Origin: a virus
Strand: one strand, 5' to 3'
IMG/VR virus record: IMGVR_UViG_3300013132_000023
Location: 64,001-128,000 of that record
DNA: 64,000 nucleotides
Shown: one piece after another, positions 4,982 through 61,917 of the stretch
Numbering within the stretch: the stretch's first letter is position 1
Layout: the number at the start of each line of letters is the position of its first letter
Translations under genes and position numbers: made by a program
The notes under the pieces: model-generated
What the model was told of the DNA's origin: nothing
The model's input: only the letters and a program-made list of their open reading frames with translations
The model's database searches: none

Positions 4982-5823
4982 TTATGCCCAAGCTTTCTTA
5001 TCTCGTATCAACATATGATTCCGGAGCTTTCTTAGATGCTCATTTTGCCGATCTAATTGAGCGTCAAACAAACCCCGATTTCGAGATTGTAGTAGTTAAT
5101 CCAGATTCTCCTGGTACAGATAACTTTATCGCTCAGAAATGGGCAGCTATTGATCCTCGTGTAAAGTACATCTACTACCATAAGCGTGAACCGTACGGAG
5201 CTTCCTGGCTCCGTGCATGGAAAAATGCTAGCGGTGAATTTGTCATGAATTCTAACACTGACGACTTTCATGAGCCACAGACTACAGAGACGGTCTATAA
5301 GCACATGAAACTAGCGATTGGGGTAATGAATACAGGCAAGAAGATTGGTTTTGGGTACGGCGGCATGACCGTTATCAAGCCAGGGGGACAAATAGTTGGA
5401 CGTGGATTAAAGCCAAAGTTTGATTTCGAGCTTATGTCTCGTGAATGCTGGGCTGGTCCTCAGGTTATTTGGAGAAACGACGACGCTTTCAAAAACGAAC
5501 TCGACTGGTCGCTCATGGAAAAAAGAGCCGCCGAGTACACTTCTGCCTACGATTACTGGCTTTGGCTTTACTTTATGAGCTTAGGATATCATGGGTACGT
5601 CATTCCTGAGTTGCTTACGGTTTATACTCAAAGACCAGACTCAATTGAGAACAGCAACAAGTGGCGAAATAATTGGGAGACTTATGCTGCCATTAGCGAG
5701 TTCTTCGGTCATAACTTTGATGGTCACTTAAAGCACGCTAAGGAGTTTCGAGACTTCTCGTCGTTGCCTCCAAAGGACGAATGGGTAGAACAAATGAAGA
5801 CGGGGAAGCAATGGAAGGCTTGA
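4978..5823 (+). CDS. GT2 glycosyltransferase
   Basis: LSYLVSTYD, FEIVVVN, NTDD, YDYWLWL motifs. Confidence 0.8.
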   Translation: MIMPKLSYLVSTYDSGAFLDAHFADLIERQTNPDFEIVVVNPDSPGTDNFIAQKWAAIDPRVKYIYYHKREPYGASWLRAWKNASGEFVMNSNTDDFHEPQTTETVYKHMKLAIGVMNTGKKIGFGYGGMTVIKPGGQIVGRGLKPKFDFELMSRECWAGPQVIWRNDDAFKNELDWSLMEKRAAEYTSAYDYWLWLYFMSLGYHGYVIPELLTVYTQRPDSIENSNKWRNNWETYAAISEFFGHNFDGHLKHAKEFRDFSSLPPKDEWVEQMKTGKQWKA

Positions 5824-6944
5824 ACACAATTAGAGTTCTTCACTACCTCCCGAACTTGGGACTTGGTGGTACCGAGAAGACCTGTCAGTTGTTTTTTGAA
5901 CACACTGGTAAAGACTTTGAGGTTGCCGTAGCCTATGAGACCAGTGGAGATTTGCGACGTTTGCCTGAATTCGAAAGAGTAGCTCGCGAACGCAAGAAGA
6001 AGTTGTATGCGATTGACTCGTATAGAGACTATTGTCCTGGAGTTAACAAACGCGTACCCGATCCTCTTGATCTTCAACGTCTCATTGATGATTTTAAGCC
6101 AGACATTTTACATGTATACCGTAGTGGCTATTCGGAATTTCCTGAGCCCGCTTTTCATGTATCAGTTCCACATACAGTTGAGACTAACGTCTTTGGTTTT
6201 TTGGATCAGAACTTTGCCATTAAGCGTACGCTATTTATGAGCAAGTGGCTGATGGAATATGCCTTGTCTAGAATTGCTCCTATTAGTCGTGGCTATGTTT
6301 TTAGGTCCAAGCGTTTTGATTTTGTGAACAATCCAGTTGAAGAGCCTTGCACGTTAGCACGTATGCATTTGGACGACAAGGCTATTTGGGTTGGTAGATG
6401 TGGGCGTCCCGACAACGGCATCTACAATGCGGTTAACGTAGAGGCCGTGCGTTTGCTTCGTATGCAGGGATATGACGTGCGATTTTTAGTAGTTGCCCCT
6501 CCAAGCAACATGGTAGCTGATTTGACTAGGTACGACATTCCCTTTAAAGTCATTGAGCCTACGGTTGATCCATTATTGCTTAGTATGTTTTACAACAGTA
6601 TCGACATTTATGCTCACGCTAGAGCAGATGGCGAAACTTTTGGCGTTAATATTGCCGAAGCCATGATGCACGGTAAGCCTGTTGTTACTCATGTTGCGGT
6701 TCCGTCTTTTTCTGGAATGGGAGTGTTTCAGTCGCAGCTTGAATTAGTAGACAATGGTGTAACTGGTTTTACTCGTAACAATGATCCCGTTGATTACATG
6801 AATGCTTTAAAAATACTGATTGACGATAAGGCATTACGAGATTCTATGGGAGTTCGTGGACGCGAAAAGGCACTTCGTGAGTATCATGTTGGTGTTTGTG
6901 TAAAGAAGCTAGAGAACATCTATCGAGAGGTTGTTCATGAATAA
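5811..6944 (+). CDS. GT4 glycosyltransferase
   Basis: LGGTEK, GRPD, GETFGVNIAEAMMHGKPVV; start moved to ATG 5811. Confidence 0.85.
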   Translation: MEGLNTIRVLHYLPNLGLGGTEKTCQLFFEHTGKDFEVAVAYETSGDLRRLPEFERVARERKKKLYAIDSYRDYCPGVNKRVPDPLDLQRLIDDFKPDILHVYRSGYSEFPEPAFHVSVPHTVETNVFGFLDQNFAIKRTLFMSKWLMEYALSRIAPISRGYVFRSKRFDFVNNPVEEPCTLARMHLDDKAIWVGRCGRPDNGIYNAVNVEAVRLLRMQGYDVRFLVVAPPSNMVADLTRYDIPFKVIEPTVDPLLLSMFYNSIDIYAHARADGETFGVNIAEAMMHGKPVVTHVAVPSFSGMGVFQSQLELVDNGVTGFTRNNDPVDYMNALKILIDDKALRDSMGVRGREKALREYHVGVCVKKLENIYREVVHE

Positions 6945-50063: not shown

Positions 50064-50273
50064 TTATAGAGTTTCATTTGGATCGATTGTGAAAATCGCC
50101 TCCGGGCACTTTAGCGATTCGCTATCGTCACCCTCGTAGTAACAAACGCCATAATCAAGGCTGTAACTAATGGTGGCATTTGGGTGCTTTTTAACGATCT
50201 TTTGAAGACGTTCTATCAGATTTGATATCTTGCCTTCAAAGTCATAGGCAGTGTATGTTTCTAAACGTCCCAT
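50064..50273 (-). CDS. hypothetical protein
   Basis: 69-aa ORF coupled to upstream ligase. Confidence 0.55.
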   Translation of the reverse strand: MGRLETYTAYDFEGKISNLIERLQKIVKKHPNATISYSLDYGVCYYEGDDSESLKCPEAIFTIDPNETL

Positions 50274-51388
50274 TAGTGATACTCCGTTCCGTCCTTGCGA
50301 GTTAGATAGTCGGGCGAAATGATCTTGAAAACCATACGCTTAGGGTGCGGGTCTAGTTCTCCCTTGCTCCACGTCAATTCGTCGTACATAGGACGAACGA
50401 CAATCCCTTCTCGAATGTGTCCATCTTCAAGGGTGGTGTTTCCTTGTGCCATTTCTAGCAGTGTTTCGTATGACAACATGCCACCACTCAAGAACGGCAC
50501 AAGCGGCAATCTTACCTTATTGCAAATGTGAGTTAGTGCATGATGATTGAGGTATTCACCATTGATAGCAATGTCGAATACACGATATCCCTTCTTGTTC
50601 TTGGCCCCGTAGTGCAGGTCTTGGACACCAGCACCATAGATTTCGCCAAAAACGATTAGTGAGTTCAGTGGACAACCAGTTCCGCCCTCTGGATTTTCAA
50701 TTGCATCGATAGCCCACTCAAGTAGCTTATCAAGTGCTTCGGCGTGTAGCTCGAAAGGAAGACCGTAGACTCCACAGTCGTTAGGGTCACGTTGCGTACG
50801 ATGTGTACCTACAACCTTTTCAAGGTAATCACTCATGCCTCCGTTTTCAGGATCAGGAGTACGTACCCAGCCAACACGGCTATTTGTACCGTGGAGCTTT
50901 TCAGTGACAACCAACGGTATGCTGTAATTAAGAGCTTCTGGGAAGTTACGAAGATTCTGCATATCCGTGTAATGATGGAACAACGGATGCTCTCTTCGCA
51001 TTTGACCAGCAGACATACCTAAGGGCGGCGGGGGCGGTTCGTACTTTTCGATACCGTAGTGAGCAGCTAGGCTCGCACCCGGTTCGGCTCCGCTGTCGTT
51101 AGGAACGAGGAAACCAAAGCTTGCAATACTACGCAAACGAGCGGCCCGGACGCGTCCCATGTCACTGTCCTTCTTAAAGGACAGGTATTGAGTCACGCCC
51201 CACTTATCGGCCCAATCGCGGGGAACCATAACTTCCGGAGGAATGTGTACTACAATGTCTCCAACCTTGTAGTTACCTTTTCCAGACACAATGTCCCAGC
51301 CGCTTACGCGGCAGATTTCAAGACGATCAGCATTGGGATGCGGATTGATAGCGGTCACAACGACCGGAGTGATGATTAGTTCGCTCAT
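50273..51388 (-). CDS. RNA ligase, DRB0094/Rnl5-like family
   Basis: N-terminal HPNADRLE OB domain, TEKLHGTN, FGEIYG, FDI, REGIVVRP, FKIISPDYL. Confidence 0.88.
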   Translation of the reverse strand: MSELIITPVVVTAINPHPNADRLEICRVSGWDIVSGKGNYKVGDIVVHIPPEVMVPRDWADKWGVTQYLSFKKDSDMGRVRAARLRSIASFGFLVPNDSGAEPGASLAAHYGIEKYEPPPPPLGMSAGQMRREHPLFHHYTDMQNLRNFPEALNYSIPLVVTEKLHGTNSRVGWVRTPDPENGGMSDYLEKVVGTHRTQRDPNDCGVYGLPFELHAEALDKLLEWAIDAIENPEGGTGCPLNSLIVFGEIYGAGVQDLHYGAKNKKGYRVFDIAINGEYLNHHALTHICNKVRLPLVPFLSGGMLSYETLLEMAQGNTTLEDGHIREGIVVRPMYDELTWSKGELDPHPKRMVFKIISPDYLTRKDGTEYH

Positions 51389-51906
51389 AGCTTTACAATT
51401 CTGCGTTCGTGGAGTCTAAGTCCTTCAACGTATTTATTTACAAAGTCGCGTTGTTCTGGCGTACACGGTGACCCCCGAGGGTCGTTGTGAGTAGTCATGA
51501 TTGATCGATAACGTCTCTTAACGAACAACGGAATCTTGCGGTCTAGTCGCATCGTTGATCTGCGGTATGAACGTCTATCTTCTCGTGGTCGTCTTTTCCA
51601 GAAGTGCTTAGCTACTTCAATTGAAGAATAAAAGTCGCCATATGCACTTGAATCCATTGTTTCGCTGTGACCGATGGGAATATCACAATCGTAGAAAATG
51701 ATTCCCCTCTCGTATCCAGTTTCATCTTGAGGGGCGTCGTAGAACACCCACTTAGATTCGTGTATATCAGTTTCAGGACTTCTTCGATAAATGACGTACG
51801 AGTAGCCAGTAATCTTGGTTTCGATCAATACGCCACCAAGAACCATATGCCAAATCGGAGTCTCTAAAGGACAGATTTCTTGGCTTGTGTTGTACTTGGT
51901 CTGCAT
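51385..51906 (-). CDS. hypothetical protein
   Basis: 173-aa ORF after consensus promoter. Confidence 0.6.
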   Translation of the reverse strand: MQTKYNTSQEICPLETPIWHMVLGGVLIETKITGYSYVIYRRSPETDIHESKWVFYDAPQDETGYERGIIFYDCDIPIGHSETMDSSAYGDFYSSIEVAKHFWKRRPREDRRSYRRSTMRLDRKIPLFVKRRYRSIMTTHNDPRGSPCTPEQRDFVNKYVEGLRLHERRIVKL

Positions 51907-51914
51907 GTCTCTCT

Positions 51915-51943
51915 ATAATAACACAAGAAGCCGCTCTTGTCAA
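51915..51943 (-). promoter_or_regulatory. sigma70-like promoter
   Basis: TTGACA-N17-TATTAT, 8 nt before ATG 51906. Confidence 0.7.
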
Positions 51944-51991
51944 GATCACCAACAGAGAATTTGCGTTTTACGTTCATTGTTTTGTTTGTAT

Positions 51992-52068
51992 TGGTGCCCA
52001 GGGCGGGAGTCGAACCCGCAAAATCTACATTCTAAGCGTAGCACGTTTGCCAGTTACGTCACCTGGGC
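51992..52068 (-). tRNA. tRNA-Leu(TAG), short variable loop
   Basis: GCCCAGG/CCTGGGC acceptor, loop CTTAGAA, GGTTCGACTCC, encoded CCA. Confidence 0.9.
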
Positions 52069-52077
52069 ATAGTATGT

Positions 52078-52106
52078 ATTGTATCACATTGCATCAAGAC
52101 TGTCAA
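52078..52106 (-). promoter_or_regulatory. sigma70-like promoter
   Basis: TTGACA-N17-TACAAT just upstream of tRNA-Leu(TAG). Confidence 0.75.
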
Positions 52107-52426
52107 GTCAAGGTCTCGGCAAGTTTGTTTGCGGCTAGCCAGCCGCGAGTAGTTGGCTCAAAGCGAGCAAAAGGACTGAACATGTACTTGTTTTCTGCAA
52201 AATGAGGATCAATTGACACTTGTCTCTTTAATGCAGCCATTGTTACGTTACGGTACAATAGGATTTTCCTGCCTTCGTAAGTTGTACAGTTTGGATACCG
52301 TATTTCTACAACCAAATTACCATAAATTTCAACAAATCGTATGATTTCGTAATGGTATGGATGTGGTTGAGAATTAGAAGACTGTCGAGAATCGTATGAA
52401 CTCGACGACATTTTGAACATTCCCAT
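52103..52426 (-). CDS. hypothetical protein
   Basis: YP.C..YEG.KIL...DPHF....SP.ARF.PT..GW phage family pattern. Confidence 0.65.
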   Translation of the reverse strand: MGMFKMSSSSYDSRQSSNSQPHPYHYEIIRFVEIYGNLVVEIRYPNCTTYEGRKILLYRNVTMAALKRQVSIDPHFAENKYMFSPFARFEPTTRGWLAANKLAETLT

Positions 52427-52435
52427 GTTTTTATT

Positions 52436-52521
52436 TGGTAGCTTCGGTGGGAGTCGAACCCACACGCTGATTAGGCACCTGATTTTGAGTCAAGCGGGTC
52501 TGCCAATTCCCCCACGAAGCC
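52436..52521 (-). tRNA. tRNA-Leu(CAA)
   Basis: GGCTTCG/CGAAGCT, loop CTCAAAA, long variable arm, CCA. Confidence 0.92.
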
Positions 52522-52740
52522 ATTCTGTTCAAGCAATTCTTCGGTCCCATCAGGATGCTCCAAATAGGCAAACCAAATTTTGCATCCCATCCTATTGAAG
52601 TGTTCTCTATTCCTGCGATGTGCTTCACGAGCTTCTGCTTCTGTTTTGCGAATCATCGGGTCTCCAGTATCGCGAGACGTGAACGTGTTACGGTGAATAC
52701 CCCACTTTACAGTCCATACTTTGTTCGGATCAACCTTCAA
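52471..52740 (-). CDS. hypothetical protein, C-terminus runs into tRNA-Leu(CAA)
   Basis: TTG start after GAGGT; stop codon inside tRNA. Confidence 0.5.
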   Translation of the reverse strand: MKVDPNKVWTVKWGIHRNTFTSRDTGDPMIRKTEAEAREAHRRNREHFNRMGCKIWFAYLEHPDGTEELLEQNGFVGELADPLDSKSGA

Positions 52741-52768
52741 TCATACCTCGCACATTAGGGTTTGTCAA
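52740..52768 (-). promoter_or_regulatory. sigma70-like promoter
   Basis: TTGACA-N17-TATGAT. Confidence 0.65.
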
Positions 52769-53238
52769 CTCTTGGGCTCGTATTTACAGATGATTGCATC
52801 TGGAAAATACGTCTCTATGATCTTGGAATAAATATCCCAATTGCCGCCACCCAGACCACAGCCCATTTTGTATGGAAAGTAGAATTGTCCATTCCAATAC
52901 TTGGATTCTGGATTTCTCCTTCGTGAATTTACAATTCGTTCAAATGCAGTCACGGTCGCGTCGTAGCTCGTCATGCGTTTCGTCCTTGAAACGTCGCCCT
53001 GGCCAAAAACGTTGGCAATTCTGATGGTTGGCGAAGCATTGAACATCCATACCCTGCCAATCAATTGCTCTTGACTAGTATCATATATTTGACAGTATTC
53101 ACGGTACTTGATTTCAAGTTCGGGCCATTTAAGAGCGAAGCTCCTAGCGATGCCGCCCCCCATGATGCCTCGACAATTGACTTGATGAAATAGAATGCCC
53201 TCTTCGAGGGCGAGCATGTCTTGTTCAATAATCTTCAT
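52765..53238 (-). CDS. macro domain (ADP-ribose-processing) protein
   Basis: HQVNC.G.MGGGIA, ANVFGQ, FPYKMGCGLGGGNW. Confidence 0.85.
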   Translation of the reverse strand: MKIIEQDMLALEEGILFHQVNCRGIMGGGIARSFALKWPELEIKYREYCQIYDTSQEQLIGRVWMFNASPTIRIANVFGQGDVSRTKRMTSYDATVTAFERIVNSRRRNPESKYWNGQFYFPYKMGCGLGGGNWDIYSKIIETYFPDAIICKYEPKS

Positions 53239-53245
53239 TGTATTG

Positions 53246-53334
53246 TGGTCCGCTCGGCAGGATTCGAACCTGCGATGGTGATTACTCACTCCAGATTAAA
53301 AGTCTGGCCCCTTCGGCCTCTCGGACACGAGCGG
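53246..53334 (-). tRNA. tRNA-Lys(TTT) with long variable arm
   Basis: CCGCTCG/CGAGCGG, CCAGA-CTTTTAA-TCTGG, 17-nt variable region, CCA. Confidence 0.85.
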
Positions 53335-53354
53335 CGGTTACTCATTGTACACTA

Positions 53355-53383
53355 AGTATAACACGCCGTAGATGTGCTGTCAA
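53355..53383 (-). promoter_or_regulatory. sigma70-like promoter
   Basis: TTGACA-N17-TATACT. Confidence 0.75.
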
Positions 53384-53384
53384 G

Positions 53385-53460
53385 TGGTACTTCCACCAGG
53401 ATTCGAACCTGGACGATTCGCTTAGAAGGCGAAGATGCTGGTCCGTTACATCATGGAAGC
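53385..53460 (-). tRNA. tRNA-Arg(TCT)
   Basis: TTCGC-CTTCTAA-GCGAA, canonical T arm, CCA. Confidence 0.92.
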
Positions 53461-53554
53461 ATATTATTCATTATCGATTACTCTTTGAGCTTCGTCTGCA
53501 AGAGATTGAAGAAAGGCAATATTATTCTTGGCTTTTTCAAGAGAGACTAGTTGT

Positions 53555-53643
53555 TGGTGCATCCGCCAGGATTCGAACCTGGGTTGGGTTTTCACCGTCC
53601 GATTAAGAGTCGGATGCCTTCGGCCAACTCGGCACACGGATGC
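53555..53643 (-). tRNA. tRNA-Lys(CTT) with long variable arm
   Basis: GCATCCG/CGGATGC, TCCGA-CTCTTAA-TCGGA, 15-nt variable region, CCA. Confidence 0.85.
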
Positions 53644-53648
53644 GTGAA

Positions 53649-53725
53649 TGGTCGGGCGTGTTGGAATTGAACCAACCTAATGTCCTCCTTCCAAGGGAGG
53701 CGACCCTCCTTGAGTCCGACGCCCG
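53649..53725 (-). tRNA. tRNA-Pro(TGG)
   Basis: CGGGCGT/ACGCCCG, CCTCC-CTTGGAA-GGAGG, CCA. Confidence 0.88.
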
Positions 53726-53733
53726 TTTTATGT

Positions 53734-53809
53734 TGGTCCGCAGCGATGGTATCGAACCATCTGTCTCTCGGTTATCAGCCGAGTGCATATACCTTTATGC
53801 TTCCTGCGG
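53734..53809 (-). tRNA. tRNA-Ile(GAT)
   Basis: CTCGG-CTGATAA-CCGAG; G:G mismatch at 7:66; CCA. Confidence 0.85.
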
Positions 53810-53838
53810 AATGTTTTAATAGTTCCAAGATTCTTCTT

Positions 53839-54435
53839 CTAGCTTCTTGGTAACGTTGGCGGTGCAACGTATCGCACAAGAAACCGCTTTGATTTTGCAC
53901 GAGCAATGTACTTCTTGGGTAGCTTAAAATCACCGTTGTTACGAATTACATTAAGCATGATTGCACGCAAACGTTGCTCCGGTTCATCGTACCGACTTCC
54001 CCATTCACCGGCTTGTTGAAGAAGATGATGAATTGATTCATCGTCATTTGGATCCATAACACAACATTCAAACGCCGATTCCATGAGTGTCATGTTGCGT
54101 TCTCCAAAGTACTTCTCAACACGAGGCCATATGTCGTAGTCTTTTGTTACAATTTCATAAACAGAGCACTTGTTCTCGATATTCACGAGAGATACAAAAG
54201 CCGCACCAAGAGCACACACCTGACATGTAGTCTTCTTGTTCTTCTTGAAGAAATCCTTGAACGATCCTGCGATCGTCTCATCATATGCACTCATGTCATT
54301 GCGTAACCATGAGTTTAGTTCAGGAGAATCCACTTGGACATACGTTCCAGGCGTTGCCTTGTAACGATTAAAACGAATCTGAGCCAGAACATCCTGGGCG
54401 ATCTTCACACACATCCGACGATTTCGACGAGTCAT
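53839..54435 (-). CDS. hypothetical protein
   Basis: 198 aa; IA.DVLAQ, CQVCALGA.F, E.AFE, RL.AIM.N.I.N.G.F pattern. Confidence 0.65.
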   Translation of the reverse strand: MTRRNRRMCVKIAQDVLAQIRFNRYKATPGTYVQVDSPELNSWLRNDMSAYDETIAGSFKDFFKKNKKTTCQVCALGAAFVSLVNIENKCSVYEIVTKDYDIWPRVEKYFGERNMTLMESAFECCVMDPNDDESIHHLLQQAGEWGSRYDEPEQRLRAIMLNVIRNNGDFKLPKKYIARAKSKRFLVRYVAPPTLPRS

Positions 54436-54462
54436 ATTTGTTGTTATTGTTGTTGTTATTGT

Positions 54463-54549
54463 TGGCGGAAGGTTAGGGAATCGAACCCTAGAGGCTTTTT
54501 ACACCCAGCCGTTTTCAAGACGGTTTCCTCGACCTACCGGACACCTTCC
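54463..54549 (-). tRNA. tRNA-Ser(TGA)
   Basis: GGAAGGT/ACCTTCC, loop CTTGAAA, long arm, G73, CCA. Confidence 0.9.
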
Positions 54550-55001
54550 AAATTTTTCACATCTGCTGGAAAGAGATACTTAGTGAGAACTTCACCAATC
54601 CCACGATCCAGAATAACCGCGAGCAGCTTGTTATGGTCTCCCTCAAACGGGCCGCTCATGAGTTGATCATACCACTTATACCAGTGTTCGTCAAGAACAA
54701 TCTCGACTGGCTGTCCTGGAACGTGCTCGAAATAGTCGGCATCGGTTTTAGGGGCAGCACGCACCTGAATAGTAATTCCGCTTTTACGAGAAGACTGGTC
54801 TTTTACCGGGACGATCTTGTCAATCGGCGGCAGTATGCCAATCCCAAGTGCGTCGTTAATGCGTTCAAACAAAGCCTCAAGAGGCGTTAACCCCTTTGTC
54901 ATTTCTTCTTTCGTGCGTTTGAATCGCTTGGCTCCAGTTACGGTCTTGTAGCTTTCGAGACAAGTGATTTGCTTTGCTTGTTCTTGCGTAATGTCGTTCA
55001 T
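54534..55001 (-). CDS. hypothetical protein sharing the TG..RF..KE domain of 49556..49921
   Basis: ITCLESYKTVTGAKRFKRTKEEMTKGLTPLEALFE; stop inside tRNA-Ser(TGA). Confidence 0.6.
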   Translation of the reverse strand: MNDITQEQAKQITCLESYKTVTGAKRFKRTKEEMTKGLTPLEALFERINDALGIGILPPIDKIVPVKDQSSRKSGITIQVRAAPKTDADYFEHVPGQPVEIVLDEHWYKWYDQLMSGPFEGDHNKLLAVILDRGIGEVLTKYLFPADVKNLEGVR

Positions 55002-55579
55002 TAAAAACTCCATCCCAAATTGATCATATACATTTCGCAATCCAACTCAGGATTGATGATGAAAATGTCTACGTCTTGATTGAAGAAGTGGCGTCGATAT
55101 TCGACTCCCACAAAGATGTTGTCTGTAAAGAACCAAGACGTACCAAAATTGACATATGGTGCGTAAGCTTGACCACGATCTTGCGGAGTGCCAGCGTAAC
55201 TCAAATCTACCTGAGTTTCAAGTTCAAACGAAGACATACCGCCGCTTGCCGACACTTGCCACGAATCCGTGACCATCCAGTTCTTTCGCAAACCCAAATA
55301 CACTTCTTGAACAGTGGTCTTTGTGCTGTCTACGCGACGATTGATATACACATCGTCATTTGACACGTCCTGGCTTTGCATAAAACCGAACTCAGGTCCG
55401 AAGCCATCTTTTCCAGCTAGGTCAATACTGCCACCCAGCACGTTCGTTTGCTGGTCAGTTGATTCCCAATCGCCAGAATCTTGAAAATCGCGAACGCCAA
55501 CCCCGACCTTCGCGTTAGGGGCCATGCGGCAGCTAGTGACAAGCGTAGCAAAAGTCAGAACAGAGAGTAAGTGCTTCAT
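55001..55579 (-). CDS. outer-membrane beta-barrel protein
   Basis: signal peptide ending LVTSC, amphipathic strands, VGVEYR, terminal INLGWSF beta signal. Confidence 0.75.
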   Translation of the reverse strand: MKHLLSVLTFATLVTSCRMAPNAKVGVGVRDFQDSGDWESTDQQTNVLGGSIDLAGKDGFGPEFGFMQSQDVSNDDVYINRRVDSTKTTVQEVYLGLRKNWMVTDSWQVSASGGMSSFELETQVDLSYAGTPQDRGQAYAPYVNFGTSWFFTDNIFVGVEYRRHFFNQDVDIFIINPELDCEMYMINLGWSF

Positions 55580-55586
55580 ATGATCT

Positions 55587-55614
55587 ATTGTACCACACGT
55601 TTGTTCGTTGTCAA
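55587..55614 (-). promoter_or_regulatory. sigma70-like promoter, near-leaderless
   Basis: TTGACA-N16-TACAAT, 7 nt before ATG 55579. Confidence 0.7.
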
Positions 55615-55623
55615 GAAAAAGTT

Positions 55624-55715
55624 TGGCGGTAGGTGTAGGATTTGAACCTACGGAGGTTTTAAAGCCCCGCTTCTTTAGCAAAGAAGTGCCTTAGGCCAGA
55701 CTCAGCCAACCTACC
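55624..55715 (-). tRNA. tRNA-Ser(GCT)
   Basis: GGTAGGT/ACCTACC, CTTCT-TTGCTAA-AGAAG, long arm, CCA. Confidence 0.92.
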
Positions 55716-55720
55716 AATTA

Positions 55721-55795
55721 TGGAGCCCCGTGAAGGATTCGAACCTGGACAAAGAGATTCAAAATCTCTGGTGCTAGCCGTTACACTATACCGGA
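55721..55795 (-). pseudogene. chimeric tRNA-Gln(TTG) with a foreign 3' end
   Basis: 5' TCCGGTA and T-stem CCAGG do not pair with 3' CCTTC-ACGGGGC-TCCA. Confidence 0.75.
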
Positions 55796-56269
55796 AATAA
55801 TCAATTGTTTCTGTGTAGGCCATACGTATTCCATTGTAGGGTCTTCGATCCAATTAAATTGACCGTAATAGACAGGATCTTTGCGAAGCAAGTTTGCACG
55901 ATGTGAAGCATGAAGCTCAGACAATCCAATCCAAGGCGGCATTTCAATGTTTGAAGAAATTGGTCCTGGTCGCATGGTGTTCTCGTATCCGCGATTAATC
56001 CATTCCGCAATAGCTTCATTCATATACGAACGTAACGCTTCATTATATCCACGCCACATAACTGCTGCCGGGTGATTTAACCATCCTTTTTTCAAAGGAC
56101 TGTTTTTCATAAAACCTTGATCAATACGCCATTGACGTTCAGTCAAAGCCCATTCATCGCCATTTACAATCAACAGTTGAAATGCTTCAACACGTTGTTT
56201 GCCGAGACGACGATAATCTAAACACGAAAGAGACTTAGTAAAGTCTGAAAAAGGAAGAAATGTTTGCAT
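55781..56269 (-). CDS. pyrimidine-dimer glycosylase-like (MSMEG_6728 family) protein
   Basis: MQTFLP, LD..RLGKQRVEA, NHPA..MW.GY, HASHR.NLLRKD, Y.WP. Confidence 0.85.
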   Translation of the reverse strand: MQTFLPFSDFTKSLSCLDYRRLGKQRVEAFQLLIVNGDEWALTERQWRIDQGFMKNSPLKKGWLNHPAAVMWRGYNEALRSYMNEAIAEWINRGYENTMRPGPISSNIEMPPWIGLSELHASHRANLLRKDPVYYGQFNWIEDPTMEYVWPTQKQLIISGIV

Positions 56270-56270
56270 A

Positions 56271-56483
56271 TTACATCTTGGTGATGCAACGATCAACACC
56301 CGTCAAAAACAAGGCAAGAATAATCACTCCTAGAATGATTGCCACAGGAATCCAAAGCGGGGCGAGCACCCACAGCCAAGGCCAGTTAATAATGTTGCCA
56401 AGCTTGAGGCCGATGAAAAGAATGGCCAATAGGCCAGTAAAGCCAACACCGCCCGAGCGAACTTTGATTTTTTGATTAGACAT
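56271..56483 (-). CDS. small membrane protein
   Basis: GGVGFTGLL.ILFI.LKL...I.W.W.WVLAPLW. Confidence 0.75.
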   Translation of the reverse strand: MSNQKIKVRSGGVGFTGLLAILFIGLKLGNIINWPWLWVLAPLWIPVAIILGVIILALFLTGVDRCITKM

Positions 56484-56528
56484 TGGATTGTGTTTAGGTT
56501 GAGGTTCAAGTTTAGTAGTAACAACCAC

Positions 56529-56556
56529 AGTATATCATGTCTCCTGGAGTTGTCAA
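56529..56556 (-). promoter_or_regulatory. sigma70-like promoter
   Basis: TTGACA-N16-TATACT. Confidence 0.7.
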
Positions 56557-56570
56557 GTGAAAATTAACGT

Positions 56571-56645
56571 TGGCGGGCCTACGGGGAATCGAACCCCGAT
56601 CTTCTATTCGACAGACAGATATTCTAGCCTTTGAACTATAGGCCC
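56571..56645 (-). tRNA. tRNA-Asp(GTC)
   Basis: GGGCCTA/TAGGCCC, loop CTGTCGA, G73, CCA. Confidence 0.9.
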
Positions 56646-56652
56646 ATTGTTT

Positions 56653-56727
56653 TGGTGCCTCCCCCAGGTAACGCTCCTGAGCCTCCAGTATTTCAAGCTG
56701 GAATGCAGACTTCTACACCAGGGAGGC
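56653..56727 (-). tRNA. tRNA-Phe(GAA), atypical T loop
   Basis: GCCTCCC/GGGAGGC, loop TTGAAAT, T loop AGCGTTA, CCA. Confidence 0.78.
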
Positions 56728-56801
56728 GGATCTTCTAACAGGATAATGTTTCCGAGTCGCACGTCTCTGTGCTTCTGATGCTTTCGCCATGATTTTGTTT
56801 T

Positions 56802-56877
56802 TGGGGTGCCTAACGAGTATCGATCTCGTACCTGGAGATTCACATTCTCCCGTGCAGGCCACTACACTATAGACACC
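56802..56877 (-). tRNA. tRNA-His(GTG)
   Basis: G-1:C73, GGAGA-ATGTGAA-TCTCC, CCA. Confidence 0.88.
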
Positions 56878-56884
56878 GCTATGA

Positions 56885-56962
56885 TGGTAGCCACAGCGGG
56901 ATTCGAACCCAGCACTTTACAGATTTTAAGTCTGTTGACTCTGCCGATTGGTCTACGTGGCC
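56885..56962 (-). tRNA. tRNA-Leu(TAA), short variable loop
   Basis: GGCCACG/TGTGGCT, ACAGA-CTTAAAA-TCTGT, CCA. Confidence 0.85.
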
Positions 56963-56988
56963 ATAAGTTGTTTGTTTTCAAAGCTGTA

Positions 56989-57006
56989 CGCTATTCGCGA
57001 ATAGCG
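56989..57006. repeat. 18-bp perfect palindrome
   Basis: CGCTATTCGCGAATAGCG in tRNA spacer. Confidence 0.9.
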
Positions 57007-57013
57007 AATGTAT

Positions 57014-57105
57014 TGGTCCGCAGGGTGGGATTCGAACCCACGTATTTCGCATATCAGGCGATGACTGATCATAAATCAGGGGGCTTACCGCTAACCGACC
57101 TGCGG
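57014..57105 (-). tRNA. tRNA-Ile(TAT) with long variable arm
   Basis: CCGCAGG/CCTGCGG, loop TTTATGA, ~22-nt variable region with TCGC/GCGA stem, CCA. Confidence 0.8.
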
Positions 57106-57135
57106 AAAAAGTTTGCCCCCAGGACAAAGGAAGTC

Positions 57136-57270
57136 CTAATTGTACCTGATACGATCTTCACCTTCTTCTTCGAACCATTCTTCGGTCTCGAAGTCCTCGG
57201 CGACGACGCGGTAATCATACACTGCGTCCTCGTCCGTGTCAAGTGTTGTTTCGAAAGATTCTTCTTCCAT
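57136..57270 (-). CDS. 44-aa highly acidic protein
   Basis: MEEESFETTLDTDEDAVYDYRVVAEDFETEEWFEEEGEDRIRYN between two tRNAs. Confidence 0.55.
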   Translation of the reverse strand: MEEESFETTLDTDEDAVYDYRVVAEDFETEEWFEEEGEDRIRYN

Positions 57271-57275
57271 TGTAT

Positions 57276-57368
57276 TGGCTCCGAGAGTAGGACTCGAACC
57301 TACGGTGGGGGAATTTCTCCCCTTCGCATTAACAGTGCGATGCGTGCTACCAACTCCGCAACCTCGGA
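57276..57368 (-). tRNA. tRNA-Asn(GTT) with long variable arm
   Basis: TCCGAGG/TCTCGGA, TCGCA-CTGTTAA-TGCGA, GGGGA/TCCCC extra stem, G73, CCA. Confidence 0.85.
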
Positions 57369-57381
57369 ACGTTGTTGTTGC

Positions 57382-57454
57382 TTGCGAGACTAGGATTCGC
57401 ACCTAGGTTTCTCCGGTCAGAGCGGAGCGTACTAGGCTGCTGTACGATCCCGCA
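57382..57454 (-). tRNA. tRNA-Gln(CTG), CCA not encoded
   Basis: TGCGGGA/TCTCGCA, CTCCG-CTCTGAC-CGGAG, T loop TGCGAAT. Confidence 0.82.
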
Positions 57455-57461
57455 GTAAAGC

Positions 57462-57761
57462 TTATTCGTATACCGTGATAGTCTTTTGCCGAGCAATCAC
57501 TTCGCGGTAACCATTGAATTCGGCACCATGATACGACTGATACCAGCCGTCAACGCGAATCAGGACTTCTGTGTCGCCATTCTTGAAACGCCACACGGTC
57601 CAGTAATCAGACCCTTGGTCTTGGCCTCCGTAATGAGCAACACACTTTTCATCAAAACTCCATCCTTCCGGAATGGGCGAATCAAAATCATCGTCCAAAT
57701 AATTGGACAAAAGCTTCTCAGCATTTTTATCTAACCAATCACGTAGTTCTGCACTGATCAT
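57462..57761 (-). CDS. hypothetical protein
   Basis: YGG.DQG..YW.V..F......GWY.SY.G phage family pattern. Confidence 0.65.
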   Translation of the reverse strand: MISAELRDWLDKNAEKLLSNYLDDDFDSPIPEGWSFDEKCVAHYGGQDQGSDYWTVWRFKNGDTEVLIRVDGWYQSYHGAEFNGYREVIARQKTITVYE

Positions 57762-58609
57762 AGTTTTTTCCAGATATCGGATTCAAAAAACCGCTCGAAA
57801 ACCACATTGTCAAACTGCTTGACTATGTTCCAGTTGTCGATAGCGTACTCCCTAAGCGGACCATCGTCAAGAGTCGTACAGACTTTTTCGAGGGCACGCA
57901 TGTATGCAATACGATATGAGAATCGTGTTCCCTTAATGCGATTTGGAATGATAAATCTTTCCAACGCAATGACGTACGTTTCTTCACGAACGCATGCTTG
58001 TTTTAGTTCATCAGAAGCAGCGTACCATAGATCTATGTCGTACGCTGCCTTGGACATGTCTTTCTTTAGCTGAAAGTACGACGGCGTACCACCAACAATG
58101 ATCTTGTGAATGTCTTCGTGATTAAACACGCGGACAACTGCATCTTTGATAAATTCCTCATTTGTCATGTCTCCAAATGGATTTCTATGAGGAAAGTACT
58201 TTCTGGTTTCCGCCATGCGGCGACTAATGAATTCGCGATCTTCATCCGTGAAATCATGATCCAGAATTTGGTACTGAATCATGTGTTTCGTGAAATTAAA
58301 GTCACGATACATATGCGAACGTTTGATTGCAGCAAGGCCACGAGAACTACATACTTTGACTAAAAGTCTACCATCAGCTAGAGCAGTCTTGTCTGTTCCA
58401 TACTTCGATTCGATTTCATGATTAAGGAAGAAAGCATCGTTATGTAATTCGATGTTTCCAAACTTCCATGAAAAGACCTTGCGATCACATGTCTTTTGAA
58501 GCAAATTTTCAGCTTCAAAGTGAGACACGATCACATCCCAATCCTTAGGATTCTTGGGACGGTGTTCTGGATGCCAGATAGAAGTAGCTCGTGAACCAAT
58601 TAGCAGCAT
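57758..58609 (-). CDS. phage protein with nucleotidyltransferase-like N-terminus
   Basis: LIGSRA...DWD, IKRSH, HEDIH, EE.YV.ALER, KVCTT. Confidence 0.65.
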   Translation of the reverse strand: MLLIGSRATSIWHPEHRPKNPKDWDVIVSHFEAENLLQKTCDRKVFSWKFGNIELHNDAFFLNHEIESKYGTDKTALADGRLLVKVCSSRGLAAIKRSHMYRDFNFTKHMIQYQILDHDFTDEDREFISRRMAETRKYFPHRNPFGDMTNEEFIKDAVVRVFNHEDIHKIIVGGTPSYFQLKKDMSKAAYDIDLWYAASDELKQACVREETYVIALERFIIPNRIKGTRFSYRIAYMRALEKVCTTLDDGPLREYAIDNWNIVKQFDNVVFERFFESDIWKKL

Positions 58610-58617
58610 ATTGTTTG

Positions 58618-58688
58618 CAGGGGCATAAGGAATCGAACCCTAGTCTATCGCTTTGGAGGCGAGTATATTACCACTATACTATACCCCT
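58618..58688 (-). tRNA. tRNA-Trp(CCA), CCA tail not encoded
   Basis: AGGGGTA/TGCCCCT, loop CTCCAAA, G73. Confidence 0.85.
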
Positions 58689-58694
58689 ATGTTT

Positions 58695-58768
58695 TGGTAC
58701 CCATTGAGGGAATCGAACCCACGCAGCTACCTTGTAGGGATAGTGTTCTGCCATTAAACTAAACGGGT
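58695..58768 (-). tRNA. tRNA-Val(TAC), C at position 33
   Basis: ACCCGTT/AATGGGT, CTATC-CCTACAA-GGTAG, CCA. Confidence 0.8.
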
Positions 58769-58771
58769 ATA

Positions 58772-59011
58772 TTATTCGATTTCAAGAACTTCGCCACGCT
58801 TACCAGCTTCATGAGCTTCCTTCAAAAGCTCAACGATACCGTAACAATCGTTAAAATTCCTGCATAAATTATTGTCTTCTATTTCTCCGTTGTTTATGAT
58901 GGAGAAATACAAGACAATATCATAAACAACAAATACCCGTTTGTCGTTGATGTAGATTTCGATACAAGAAGTTCCATCTTCGCGATCTGTAATCTTTTCT
59001 TTGATTTTCAT
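58772..59011 (-). CDS. hypothetical protein
   Basis: 79-aa ORF in three-gene operon. Confidence 0.55.
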   Translation of the reverse strand: MKIKEKITDREDGTSCIEIYINDKRVFVVYDIVLYFSIINNGEIEDNNLCRNFNDCYGIVELLKEAHEAGKRGEVLEIE

Positions 59012-59274
59012 AGTTCAATTCCTGAGTTCTTGCAAAATTCCAGATACTCTTGACTTGGAGCACCAAGTTCATACACAGATCCAGAGTACGTTCGTGCCGT
59101 TCTGTTCTTCACGTCAATTTCCATCAAGGAAGATGATGTAATCCTATGACCCGCTGGGTAACGTGGGTGTCCGTAAACTTGACCAGTGAGCGACTTGAAT
59201 CGTCTTTCTGGAGCAGTGTATTCATTTACACCTGGAGAGTCTACGATACCCCAATCTTCAATTGCTATTTTCAT
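59008..59274 (-). CDS. hypothetical protein
   Basis: L.G.VYGHP....G..I.SS...T.SG..Y.LG.P pattern. Confidence 0.65.
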   Translation of the reverse strand: MKIAIEDWGIVDSPGVNEYTAPERRFKSLTGQVYGHPRYPAGHRITSSSLMEIDVKNRTARTYSGSVYELGAPSQEYLEFCKNSGIEL

Positions 59275-59465
59275 GATCTTTTCAAGATTTCATCTAGCTT
59301 GTCGAATGAAGGCACGCTTGAATTATGCCAACGATAACACAATGGACAGTAGTACGGATATCTATCGCAGTCCGCTTTTTGTGCGACTTGAAAAGAAGCG
59401 TATGCTCTTTTACTAAGACACATCCTGTGCTTCCTGAGTTTCTTGCGTTGACGATTCGAAAGCAT
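59271..59465 (-). CDS. small basic Zn-finger protein
   Basis: C..KR.Y...Y.CP.C..WH. Confidence 0.6.
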   Translation of the reverse strand: MLSNRQRKKLRKHRMCLSKRAYASFQVAQKADCDRYPYYCPLCYRWHNSSVPSFDKLDEILKRS

Positions 59466-59471
59466 GTTGTT

Positions 59472-59500
59472 AGTATATCCCTTGATGTCTAAGTTGTCAA
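59472..59500 (-). promoter_or_regulatory. sigma70-like promoter, leaderless
   Basis: TTGACA-N17-TATACT, 6 nt before ATG 59465. Confidence 0.75.
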
Positions 59501-59507
59501 GGAAAAA

Positions 59508-59583
59508 TGGAGCCGCCGATGGGACTCGAACCCATAACCCCCTGATTACAAATCAGGAGCACCACCAATTGTGCTACAGCGGC
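59508..59583 (-). tRNA. tRNA-Thr(TGT)
   Basis: GCCGCTG/CGGCGGC, CCTGA-TTTGTAA-TCAGG, CCA. Confidence 0.93.
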
Positions 59584-59586
59584 CTA

Positions 59587-59661
59587 TGGTCCTGGGTACG
59601 GGTATCGATCCCGTTTCTAGTCCTTGAAAGGGACTTATCCTAGCCACTAGACGAACCCAGG
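59587..59661 (-). tRNA. tRNA-Glu(TTC)
   Basis: CCTGGGT/ACCCAGG, AGTCC-CTTTCAA-GGACT, CCA. Confidence 0.88.
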
Positions 59662-59666
59662 TTGAA

Positions 59667-59987
59667 TGGTGGACACGGAGCGGTTTTTGTCATTGTGTTA
59701 AAATCCTAGATCGTCTGGACCTTCAAGCTTTGCCTTACCACAGCAAGATGCTTGAAGACTATGAGGGGAAACCCCGCAAAATCATTAATATTTTGCGAGC
59801 ACTCAAATTGTCCGTAATCACTTCCAGATACGTTCATCATCCCACTAGGTTACCCGGCTAATTACTTCCGAGTGTTTTGGTAGCTTAAAAGAGGGTGTAC
59901 TGTAGCCTATACATGCATGTTGTACACCATGGCGAGCAGTATCAAGCACGGAATTGTACTGCATAATCCGCTCTAAGCCTCTCCGTG
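59667..59987 (-). ncRNA. unassigned ~320-nt structured RNA ending in GUCC-ACCA
   Basis: terminal CACGGAG/CTCCGTG and GAGCGG/CCGCTC pairings plus at least five internal helices; no ORF of 60 aa or more. Confidence 0.65.
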
Positions 59988-60020
59988 AAGCGTTGTTCAT
60001 TCTTCTCTTTCAAGCTATTC

Positions 60021-60096
60021 TGGTGGAGAGCATGGGAATTGAACCCACCCCACGGACCTTGCAAAGGTCTGTCGCCACCTTGGTACATGGCCCCCC
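60021..60096 (-). tRNA. tRNA-Ala(TGC)
   Basis: GGGGGGC/GCTCTCC with G3:U70, loop TTTGCAA, CCA. Confidence 0.85.
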
Positions 60097-60098
60097 AT

Positions 60099-60177
60099 AA
60101 CAGCGATCACTTTAAGATTAACCCCTACAACTCACGCCCAGCATTACCTGATAGTAGGGATCTCAAAAATCGCTGTT
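60099..60177 (-). ncRNA. candidate ~80-nt rod-like RNA
   Basis: AACAGCGAT/ATCGCTGTT, TTTTGAGAT/ATCTTAAAG, CCCTAC/GTAGGG stacked stems. Confidence 0.45.
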
Positions 60178-60183
60178 GTTTTA

Positions 60184-60297
60184 TGGCCAGTCGTGTGGCA
60201 GACTGGTAAGCCTCGTTGTCTTTCTCTTTACAACGCAAGAGAGCCGAACTGCCCATGTGGCCAATCCCCTATCTCGTCGGCAGAAGCGTAGGGATAC
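60184..60297 (-). ncRNA. candidate 114-nt pseudoknotted RNA ending in GCCA
   Basis: begins right after the CCA of tRNA-Gly; ATCCCTA/TAGGGGAT, TCTCTT/AAGAGA with loop CGTTGT pairing to ACAACG, CCAGTC/GACTGG. Confidence 0.5.
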
Positions 60298-60375
60298 TGG
60301 AGTCTCTTGTGGGAGTTGCACCCACACCTTACGGCTTGGAAGGCCGATGTGCTATCTATTAAACACCAAAGAGAC
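60298..60375 (-). tRNA. tRNA-Gly(TCC)
   Basis: GTCTCTT/AAGAGAC, loop CTTCCAA, U73, CCA. Confidence 0.85.
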
Positions 60376-60380
60376 GTATA

Positions 60381-60466
60381 TGGTGCCAGCAGCAGGATTC
60401 GAACCTGCGACGCCTTTTGAGTCACGGTTTACAGCCGCGTGCCATCGACCACTCGACCATACTGGC
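60381..60466 (-). tRNA. tRNA-Tyr(GTA)
   Basis: GCCAGTA/TGCTGGC, loop CTGTAAA, long arm, CCA. Confidence 0.92.
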
Positions 60467-60477
60467 AATTGTACTGA

Positions 60478-60548
60478 CTCCCTTGGTGAGTGTTTCACTC
60501 ACGTCTCCATCTAACGCGGATGGTGTCTTACGCCTAAACGACAAGGAA
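60478..60548 (-). tRNA. tRNA-like gene with atypical anticodon loop CGCGTTA (nominal CGT)
   Basis: full cloverleaf: TTCCTTG/CAAGGGA, CCATC/GATGG, GTGAG/CTCAC; T loop TGAAACA; no CCA. Confidence 0.65.
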
Positions 60549-60551
60549 TTA

Positions 60552-60843
60552 AGTGTGCTGGGAATAGGTATATTCACCCAACTATGTCTTTTTCCAGACT
60601 GCTTACTTAAAAATAAGTAGCCCTATGACTTTCGATCTCCACTTGTGGTCTCGCTTTGATCGCTTTTCTTTAAAGTCAAGAAAACGTACGTCCACTGAAC
60701 GACACTTGACTTACATCTTAACCGATTTTTCAATTAGCCACTAATGTAGCTAGGTCGTTTTCATTTGTTAGGCTCACCGACTTACACGGCTATCCCTTTC
60801 GGGGTTTGGTTGCACCACCTACGCTTGCCGACCACAAGCTCGT
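60552..60843 (-). ncRNA. unassigned ~290-nt structured RNA at the head of the tRNA operon
   Basis: 10-bp long-range helix 60830-60839/60641-60650, CCC-GAAA-GGG, TAGCTAC/GTGGCTA, TTTTCTT/AAGAAAA and other stems; follows a promoter. Confidence 0.55.
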
Positions 60844-60849
60844 ACCACT

Positions 60850-60877
60850 ATTATACACCACTTTCGGTGTTCTGCAA
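60850..60877 (-). promoter_or_regulatory. sigma70-like promoter of the ncRNA/tRNA operon
   Basis: TTGCAG-N16-TATAAT with TG upstream of the -10. Confidence 0.65.
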
Positions 60878-60894
60878 CCAAAAATCTGGAAAAA

Positions 60895-61917
60895 CTACGA
60901 TTTCTTCGGTCGCTTGCAGTTTTTAGCGTGCTTCTTGCCACCCTTAGCCCCGCAGTACGTGCAGGCCGCACGCTTCGGAGTCTTAACAGCAACCTTCGGA
61001 GCATCAGCCACGTCGTCGTATTCATCCAGGGGACAGTCGCCGAAATCCAGGCCCATGTCTTCATCCAACTCAGGCACGTCGTCCTGGTACTCTTCGGGCT
61101 GGACGTTCACGGCAACGTACAGAGGTTCCTCCATGATTCGTTCGCAAATATCCACGACCTCGTAACGACACACGCGAAGCTTCTCGCAAGAATGGTCGCG
61201 AGGAACCGATACCGCATCACGAGGATTAACCTTAACAAGAACAAGCTTGCCATCGGAGCTAGCAAAGTCACTGGCGTACTTGTGCGTGCCAACGTGGAAA
61301 CCAGTTGAACAAGCTGCGTTCGTGTCGGGATCGACTTGTTCACGCGGCATTTCGTTCACAGAACCAATGCTGTTATCGAACGTTTGAGTATGACGATCCT
61401 TGAAGTCGCTCGTCAAGCCCTTGTACGCCATAAAACACCCATCGTGCGTGATAGGGAAGTTGCCGTGCTTGAGGAAGTCGTACAATTCGTTTCGCGAACG
61501 CTCATTCGGGTTCTCCATCAAGTTAGCAAGGAAACGAGCCAGCGGCTTATAAGGAAGCTGTTGTCGCACGAAACTGCTAATCGTGTCAGCAATCACGCTA
61601 TGCACTTGTTCGCCATTGTAGAACACTTCGCCATATTGGTTAACCGTCACGCCCTCAATTCGCTTTTCAAGCGAAGCCGGAATGTCGAGCAATGGATCAA
61701 GACGATCAGATTCATTATTAGTGAGACACGCTACAATTGCATTGTAGTTAGGATGCGTCTTGCCAATAGAATGCGTTCTGCCATTCCAGGCGATTGTGAT
61801 GTTTCCATCGTTCGTCATGATGAACTTAGGAGTCGGCTTTTCAGGCAGACCTACATCAATAAGAACTTCTTCTTGATTGATGCCAGTCAGTCGTTTGATA
61901 ATGTCGAAGATACTCAT
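60895..61917 (-). CDS. rIIB: rIIB-like protein
   Basis: HPNY, F..NL..NP, ELY.FL, IT.DG.F.AYK, V..D....CS.G.HV, VKVNP.D.VSVP.D, K.RVCRY. Confidence 0.9.
   Translation of the reverse strand: MSIFDIIKRLTGINQEEVLIDVGLPEKPTPKFIMTNDGNITIAWNGRTHSIGKTHPNYNAIVACLTNNESDRLDPLLDIPASLEKRIEGVTVNQYGEVFYNGEQVHSVIADTISSFVRQQLPYKPLARFLANLMENPNERSRNELYDFLKHGNFPITHDGCFMAYKGLTSDFKDRHTQTFDNSIGSVNEMPREQVDPDTNAACSTGFHVGTHKYASDFASSDGKLVLVKVNPRDAVSVPRDHSCEKLRVCRYEVVDICERIMEEPLYVAVNVQPEEYQDDVPELDEDMGLDFGDCPLDEYDDVADAPKVAVKTPKRAACTYCGAKGGKKHAKNCKRPKKS

Follow-up and report, generated by a model that had tools for sequence, protein, structure and literature searches.

The window analysed here, a stretch of 64,000 nucleotides, covers bases 64001-128000 of a 137,177-base IMG/VR virus record with an estimated completeness of 87%. 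Near-identical DNA was present in lake-water metagenome runs. The stretch under study, 60552-60843, lies in a tRNA-operon leader, with rIIA and rIIB upstream of it and an array of 24 tRNA genes downstream, all on the same strand (Table 1). The tRNA genes were called by ARAGORN, and 20 of them reached the Rfam gathering score. After the leader come tRNA-Tyr and tRNA-Gly, then a spacer of 202 nt and an odd alanine tRNA, then a spacer of 359 nt that has CCA at its end, and finally tRNA-Glu and tRNA-Thr. No credible ORF was found in the promoter-proximal 1.33 kb of the array (60843-59508). An RNA ligase gene lies at the far end of the array, reminiscent of the tRNA-repair ligases in T4-like phages.

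Table 1 Features of the rII-tRNA locus, in window positions. Pair probabilities are given as ranges over the folding contexts; X6 is a diverged natural variant of the locus.
Feature	Position	Strand	Remarks
rIIA	63839-61914	minus	PHROGs match, E 7e-125
rIIB	61917-60895	minus	PHROGs match, E 1.5e-66
Sigma-70-like promoter	60850-60877	minus	TTGCAG (60877-60872), 16-nt spacer, TATAAT (60855-60850); by eye
tRNA-operon leader, untranslated	60467-60843	minus	~377 nt; putative start, end at the 5' end of tRNA-Tyr
Long-range helix, 5' strand	60830-60839	minus	GCUUGUGGUC; outside the part aligned in X6
GAAA-capped hairpin	60794-60804	minus	CCCCGAAAGGG; 3-4 bp, pair probability 0.27-0.93 by context
Conserved core	60651-60781	minus	131 nt with two hairpins and the mini-frame; ~95% identical in X6
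ATG-less mini-frame	60730-60768	minus	TNENDLATLVAN + UGA (ACA..UGA)
Hairpin 1	60735-60752	minus	7 bp; UAGCUAC (60752-60746), AUUA, GUGGCUA (60741-60735)
Hairpin 2	60673-60712	minus	outer stem AAGUCAAG (60712-60705)/CUUGACUU (60680-60673), inner hairpin CGUUC-AGU-GGACG; probability 0.42-0.76
Long-range helix, 3' strand	60641-60650	minus	GACCACAAGU
Pseudo-tRNA, tRNA-shaped	60478-60548	minus	last element of the leader, 71 nt; ARAGORN at 80% threshold only
tRNA-Tyr(GUA)	60381-60466	minus	first tRNA of the operon, 11 nt past the pseudo-tRNA
tRNA array	60466-51992	minus	24 tRNA genes
tRNA-Gly(UCC)	60298-60375	minus
202-nt non-coding spacer	60096-60297	minus	between tRNA-Gly and the Ala-type tRNA; z = -2.77
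Ala-type tRNA	60021-60095	minus	UGC anticodon
359-nt non-coding RNA	59662-60020	minus	between the Ala-type tRNA and tRNA-Glu; z = -3.3
RNA ligase gene	50273-51388	minus	PHROG 968, E 2.4e-42

The promoter is located 18 nt behind the rIIB stop codon. It was absent from the scanner list because its -35 box agrees with the consensus at only three of six positions. The one assembled relative, G001, has TTGACG-17-TATAAT in the same GTGTATAATAG context, preceding its own tRNA array. Given this conservation, the transcript would start near 60843. The sequence-only reading had called the stretch a leader RNA of about 290 nt, and this description held: the stretch sits between a sigma-70-like promoter and the first tRNA of the operon, and carries no credible ORF. 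No ORF longer than 39 aa was present in the leader on either strand. The leader occurs once in the genome and has no repeats above 13 nt there. At E<=10, a comparison with Rfam returned only four matches, all at chance level (E 1.2 to 9.7): a snoRNA, an miRNA, a CRISPR-repeat and the RAGATH-7 model. A likeness to RNase P RNA (GAAAGUC..AUAGGGC) had no Rfam support.

All sequence motifs listed in the sequence-only reading were recovered on the minus strand, at the positions collected in Table 1. They did not rise above chance. The two strands of the long-range helix form nine Watson-Crick pairs and one G.U pair. When the 292 nt were shuffled by mononucleotide, 30 of 100 sequences contained an uninterrupted helix scoring at least as high as this 10-bp helix. 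The predicted pair probability of the long-range helix was ~0.95 only when the RNA was cut at 60552. It was ~0.46 when the RNA was extended by the next 85 nt to the 5' end of tRNA-Tyr, and ~0.01 with tRNA-Tyr included, a pessimistic value because tRNA-Tyr would fold by itself. In the minimum free energy (MFE) structure of 379 nt, the 5' end pairs elsewhere than in the long-range helix. The MFE z-score of the 292 nt was -2.26 (3/200 shuffles), and -2.37 in a separate script. Eighteen same-strand coding windows of 292 nt gave a mean z of -1.04 (sd 1.11, minimum -2.41), so that the leader, at about -2.3, falls within the range of the phage's coding windows. Hairpin 1 was the sole robust element: in all four contexts its inner five pairs had probabilities of at least 0.9 and its two outer pairs of 0.72-0.88. 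The long-range helix and the tag-like reading frame discussed below are most likely incidental. A reading of the 10-bp inverted repeat as a MITE was dropped, the sequence being single-copy and no target duplication being seen by eye.

The 3' strand of hairpin 2 has an alternative partner, AAAGUCA (60632-60626), with a probability of 0.02-0.31. A cis-acting switch or attenuator could be built on this, in which CUUGACUUU pairs with either the upstream AAGUCAAG or the downstream AAAGUCA and so tunes transcription or processing into the tRNAs. Both pairings are indeed present, and the alternative one rises from 0.02 to 0.31 as downstream RNA is added. A weak terminator-like hairpin with a U-run lies at 60701-60689; it carries little weight, since the scan returned five such sites against an expectation of 2.6. 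No convincing terminator comes after either fold, Rfam gave no match to a riboswitch or leader family, and nothing suggests a ligand or effector. We consider a switch quite improbable.

Contigs of four further lake and sediment runs were compared at the locus. Three of the runs had identical sequence, and the fourth, X6, had a diverged relative. The 433-nt X6 contig, a single contig of depth 5.5, aligned over 60651-60781 only, with five substitutions and one gap; its other 303 nt were unalignable at >=80%. The aligned core is about as conserved as the tRNAs of X6, with three differences each in tRNA-Thr and tRNA-Glu, in a background that is mostly unalignable. The central 131 nt thus seem to be under constraint, as judged from this one variant, and recent recombination could have mimicked such constraint.

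The X6 differences were placed on the predicted folds. On the minus strand, U60748>C turns a U.G pair of hairpin 1 into C-G and leaves the amino acid of the mini-frame unchanged. The loop of the same hairpin has lost one nucleotide, at 60745. Past the stop codon of the mini-frame, A60726>C and G60723>A affect two pairs of a predicted 4-bp helix (AUCG/CGAU), which they would break unless compensated. The two remaining substitutions lie near the ends of the aligned piece, and none of the listed differences changes hairpin 2. A covariance model of the core, run against 111,592 bases of related loci, found only itself. As a fallback, the sequence-only reading had offered a novel non-coding RNA; no known RNA family matches, and such an RNA is possible for the central 131 nt.

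No reading of the leader as protein-coding was sustained. Its longest ORFs measure 30-39 aa and have no ribosome-binding sites, and none of four candidate ORFs (30-53 aa) matched Pfam or PHROG. Six-frame tblastn against the related loci gave nothing below E=0.67, and there was no likeness to neighbouring ORFs in the relatives. The candidates for a small protein would be, for example, a 39-aa ORF on the plus strand (60625-60744) or a four-codon ORF on the minus strand (AUG AAA ACG ACC UAG, 60763-60749), which has a GGUGA 9 nt ahead of its AUG. For the plus-strand ORF, the X6 changes at 60723 and 60726 fall at third codon positions, one synonymous and one Asp>Glu, and the other two listed changes lie outside it; two substitutions prove nothing. 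This ORF lacks a ribosome-binding site, is antisense to every neighbouring gene and belongs to no family, and its frame, read as 43 aa, had no homologue among 5.8 billion proteins. In a 36-aa ORF on the minus strand the X6 changes are non-synonymous. A small protein encoded here is therefore very improbable.

The main inference of the sequence-only reading concerned the mini-frame. It was proposed to be the coding half of a two-piece tmRNA-like system adding a tag that ends in LVAN, the acceptor half being one of the CCA-ending RNAs downstream. Such a split tmRNA, with a tag that does not lead to degradation, would be striking, if true. The frame has 12 codons and a stop, its 3' part lies in a hairpin, and it comes from a water phage, which is like tmRNA (RF00023, and the permuted or two-piece RF04321 and lineage models). 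Downstream there is an alanine-type tRNA-like RNA with G3:U70 and CCA, which scored 15.7 bits on the tmRNA model and was missed by the tRNA model. The likeness of the frame to a tag goes no further than a loose resemblance at the nucleotide level; it has no start codon and ends in ..LVAN before UGA. The usual tmRNA tag ends in a hydrophobic ..AA, unlike VAN. Phage precedents exist: two-piece tmRNAs, in which a single precursor yields both pieces and is then split, are described for aquatic phages in PMC9004378, and a tmRNA form having the tRNA-like domain alone is described for mycobacteriophage DS6A in PMC4131195. With such phage tmRNAs on record, the idea merited testing.

The evidence points against it. 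With the one-piece and permuted tmRNA covariance models of Rfam 15 and lax filters, 60460-60900 gave no tmRNA match at E<=10, and no match in the window reached the gathering thresholds. Near the leader, tmRNA models matched only at the Ala-like gene (60021-60096, 15.7 bits against a gathering score of 47) and at 59978-60048 (11.7 bits, E=4.6). ARAGORN reported no tmRNA in the window at its default setting and none in the leader at thresholds of 90% or 80%; at 90% it made one spurious call elsewhere in the genome. At 70% it did print a permuted tmRNA with the tag ENDLATLVAN. This call is uninformative, since at that threshold the 137-kb genome yielded 304 tmRNA calls and each of five shuffles yielded 419-468. 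The sole cloverleaf of the leader (60548-60478) has neither CCA nor G3:U70.

Pairing of the leader with the downstream CCA-ending RNAs was no better than chance. It was assessed by a longest-helix test, whole-length RNAduplex energies having been dropped for their full-length artificial duplexes. The best helix of the leader was equalled by 79/100 shuffles for the 359-nt RNA, by 88/100 for the Ala-like tRNA and by 63/100 for the 202-nt spacer, and none of the three helices involved the acceptor (CCA-proximal) strand. The gene order is also wrong. In a permuted tmRNA gene the coding piece directly follows the acceptor piece, whereas here the candidate acceptor RNAs lie downstream of the leader, with tRNA-Tyr and tRNA-Gly in between. 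Nor is the frame kept in the X6 variant: the deletion at 60745 cuts it to TNENDLAT, ending in ..LAT and UAG, and LVAN is lost. SmpB (PF01668) had no match in the 137-kb contig and was matched in 10 of 14 control genomes. As SmpB would come from the host, its absence from the phage decides nothing. Without a model match or partner pairing, with the gene order reversed and with a frameshift in the variant, the split-tmRNA interpretation is rejected; the chance that it is right is minute.

Relatives of the locus were sought by several routes. A protein search of viral contigs with rIIB gave a single useful locus, G001, in which rIIB is 69% identical, and a search based on an rIIB alignment gave three loci, two of them new but distant. 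A metagenome scan added two loci that had no usable downstream sequence. With tblastn of rIIB, isolates at >=60% identity were not found, and among 50,697 phage records blastn with 59480-60960 found matches to the tRNAs alone. The leader of G001 is 165 nt long and folds into a closed multi-hairpin (z = -2.06). It shares no sequence with the leader of the window past the promoter, and in blastn the locus matched G001 in the Ala-like tRNA only. As the G001 leader is dissimilar and the model of the core finds nothing there, any function of the core would be lineage-specific.

Exact leader patterns had no matches in viral contigs for three of four patterns. A gapped leader pattern matched the promoter of an unrelated AT-rich phage (L017), which was discarded as chance. 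In genome contigs the leader patterns had no matches at first and later one 23-nt identity. There, 60749-60771 of the window equals positions 7343-7365 of L019 (CTAACAAATGAAAACGACCTAGC), an intergenic site in a contig of an Akkermansiaceae MAG. This identity is probably due to chance, as the flanks are unrelated and no tRNAs are found there.

The pseudo-tRNA at the 3' end of the leader lacks CCA, which is encoded by 22 of the 24 real tRNAs of the phage, and has an off-consensus T loop (UGAAACA) and a G at position 33. ARAGORN is noisy at the 80% threshold, with 86 extra calls in the genome against 44-66 in shuffles, and the element had no match to RF00005 at E<=10. Its best alignment was to the tRNA-Gly(UCC) of the phage, including the unusual T loop, and was equalled by 2/200 shuffles. 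This likeness makes the element a probable pseudogene, in that 60478-60548 is probably a decayed copy of tRNA-Gly. The tRNA-Gly gene itself has the off-consensus T loop UGCAACU and scored 36.5 bits on the Rfam tRNA model; its counterpart in G001 has a canonical T loop.

A decayed tRNA at this place is what would be expected if the leader were evolutionary filler, a spacer assembled from decayed tRNA genes and insertions, with chance helices, and discarded during tRNA processing. This is the main rival to a leader that carries a functional module. The long-range helix and the z-score of the leader are at background level, as filler would have them, and the leader of G001 differs in length and sequence. 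The long spacers vary as well: tRNA-Gly and the Ala-like tRNA are 14 nt apart in G001 and 202 nt apart here, which marks the 202-nt spacer as a lineage-specific insertion. Against filler stands the 131-nt core, which in X6 is about as conserved as the tRNAs amid a background mostly unalignable at 80%, and in which one X6 change strengthens hairpin 1. The remainder of the leader also lacks the remnants that decayed tRNA genes would leave: a search of 60552-60843 found no tRNA remnant above chance, with 80/100 shuffles scoring equally. We regard filler throughout as a rather unlikely explanation, albeit one with real weight.

The reading that we favour, and hold to be reasonably probable, is that of an untranslated tRNA-operon leader which is removed during tRNA maturation and which combines a decayed tRNA copy with a central two-hairpin module that may be functional. 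In bacteria and phages alike, ordinary 5' leaders and spacers of tRNA operons are promoter-proximal, untranslated and variable among relatives, and are removed by RNase P and RNase E. Transcription would begin near 60843, at the promoter directly behind rIIB. The first ~200 nt of the transcript could form a multi-hairpin domain, to be followed by ~90 nt of weak hairpins, the putative tRNA-Gly copy and tRNA-Tyr. Host RNase P and RNase E would then release the tRNAs and presumably cut the leader off, as in the general processing of tRNA operons. As to the core, there is a little less than an even chance that it stabilises the precursor or guides its processing, or is retained as a stable small RNA of the kind of rnaC and rnaD of T4.

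More ambitious versions of this are improbable. In one, the core would be a new small RNA of the phage, transcribed and processed together with the tRNAs. A bolder one would make the 377-, 202- and 359-nt spacers, interleaved with tRNA-Tyr, tRNA-Gly, the Ala-like tRNA, tRNA-Glu and tRNA-Thr, the domains of a single new structured RNA system of the tRNA island, of a kind with GOLLD, ROOL or T4 rnaC/rnaD; its target might be the maturation of tRNAs or a tRNA-directed defence of the host.

By context, the closest analogues are uncharacterised small RNAs of phage tRNA clusters such as rnaC and rnaD of T4, a lytic phage. Also called species 1 and species 2 RNAs, these two stand in the T4 record as small stable RNAs, 139 and 119 nt long, which are neither coding nor tRNAs and belong to the tRNA cluster, on the tRNA strand. 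Their biological roles are given as unknown in PMC3014915. The leader is likewise co-linear with tRNAs, on the same strand and in a tRNA cluster. It has no sequence similarity to them: the alignment score of the 377-nt leader was 14 with rnaC (198/200 shuffles as good) and 17 with rnaD (90/200). The leader is promoter-proximal and is known here from its sequence alone, whereas the two RNAs of T4 sit at the 3' end of their cluster and are of established stability.

A second group for comparison is the large ornate RNAs GOLLD and ROOL, which PMC12286853 describes as structured RNAs of phages and prophages that are of unknown function and are often found near tRNA islands. According to the same source, GOLLD was first sighted in lake metagenomes, and its linker sometimes carries tRNAs. 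The present locus is similar in that the tRNAs of a lake phage alternate here with long non-coding stretches of 377, 202 and 359 nt. It differs in that no Rfam match to either family was found at E<=10 over 51000-61500 or in scans of shorter ranges, in that the leader is much smaller, and in that it shows no above-chance pairing to the other spacers.

Compared with ordinary tRNA-operon leaders, this one is long for its class at ~377 nt, and it has a 131-nt island that is conserved in a diverged relative. It is ordinary in kind, with one conserved island of modest interest. With the split tmRNA set aside, what remains is a further example of a long non-coding RNA, conserved in part, from the tRNA island of a phage, which opens no new question alone. 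The class that includes T4 rnaC and rnaD, GOLLD and ROOL has been without a function for decades, so each example with natural variants provides comparative material.

Other elements of the locus are more unusual, namely the long-variable-arm tRNAs for Lys, Ile and Asn and the conserved Ala-type tRNA without a D stem. The latter has G3:U70 and an encoded CCA. It was missed by the Rfam tRNA model, and its 15.7 bits on the tmRNA model come from the acceptor and T arm. Counterparts lie at 5815-5890 of L002 and 5989-6064 of L015. The gene is 91% conserved in G001, and in a third phage, with an rIIB 47% identical, it shows a compensatory change from C-G to G-C in the anticodon stem. With the tRNA-Ala genes of phages of Mycobacterium and Vibrio it shares 80-86% identity.

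The 359-nt RNA behind it has the strongest folding z-score of the locus. It ends in ..UCCACCA, 5 nt ahead of the next tRNA, and by eye its ends can be closed by CACGGAGAGG/CCGCUCCGUG. Against Rfam, it gave only the 11.7-bit match to permuted tmRNA at its 5' edge. For part of it (59701-59849) there was an aligning contig in X6, the differences amounting to 8 substitutions and 16 gap letters. In the X6 relative, 386 extra letters lie between tRNA-Glu and tRNA-Thr (59584-59587), which are 3 nt apart in the window.

Four tRNAs of the array, at 53246-53334, 53555-53643, 57014-57105 and 57276-57368 on the minus strand, are 89-93 nt long and have stem-loop variable arms like those of class II tRNAs. 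Their anticodons are those of Lys (UUU), Lys (CUU), Ile (UAU) and Asn (GUU), and the discriminators A, A, A and G fit the cognate amino acids. A literature search for long variable arms together with anticodon nucleases in phages gave no papers. In G001, the genes for Asn, Ile-UAU and Lys-CUU measure 74-76 nt and that for Thr-UGU 93 nt. In L015, a more distant relative (rIIB 47%), T-arm-like minihelices (GGTTCGAnTCC hairpins) lie in a row at 5600-5760, behind the promoter of the tRNA operon, and the tRNA at 6192-6267, whose anticodon is CUA, would be an amber suppressor.
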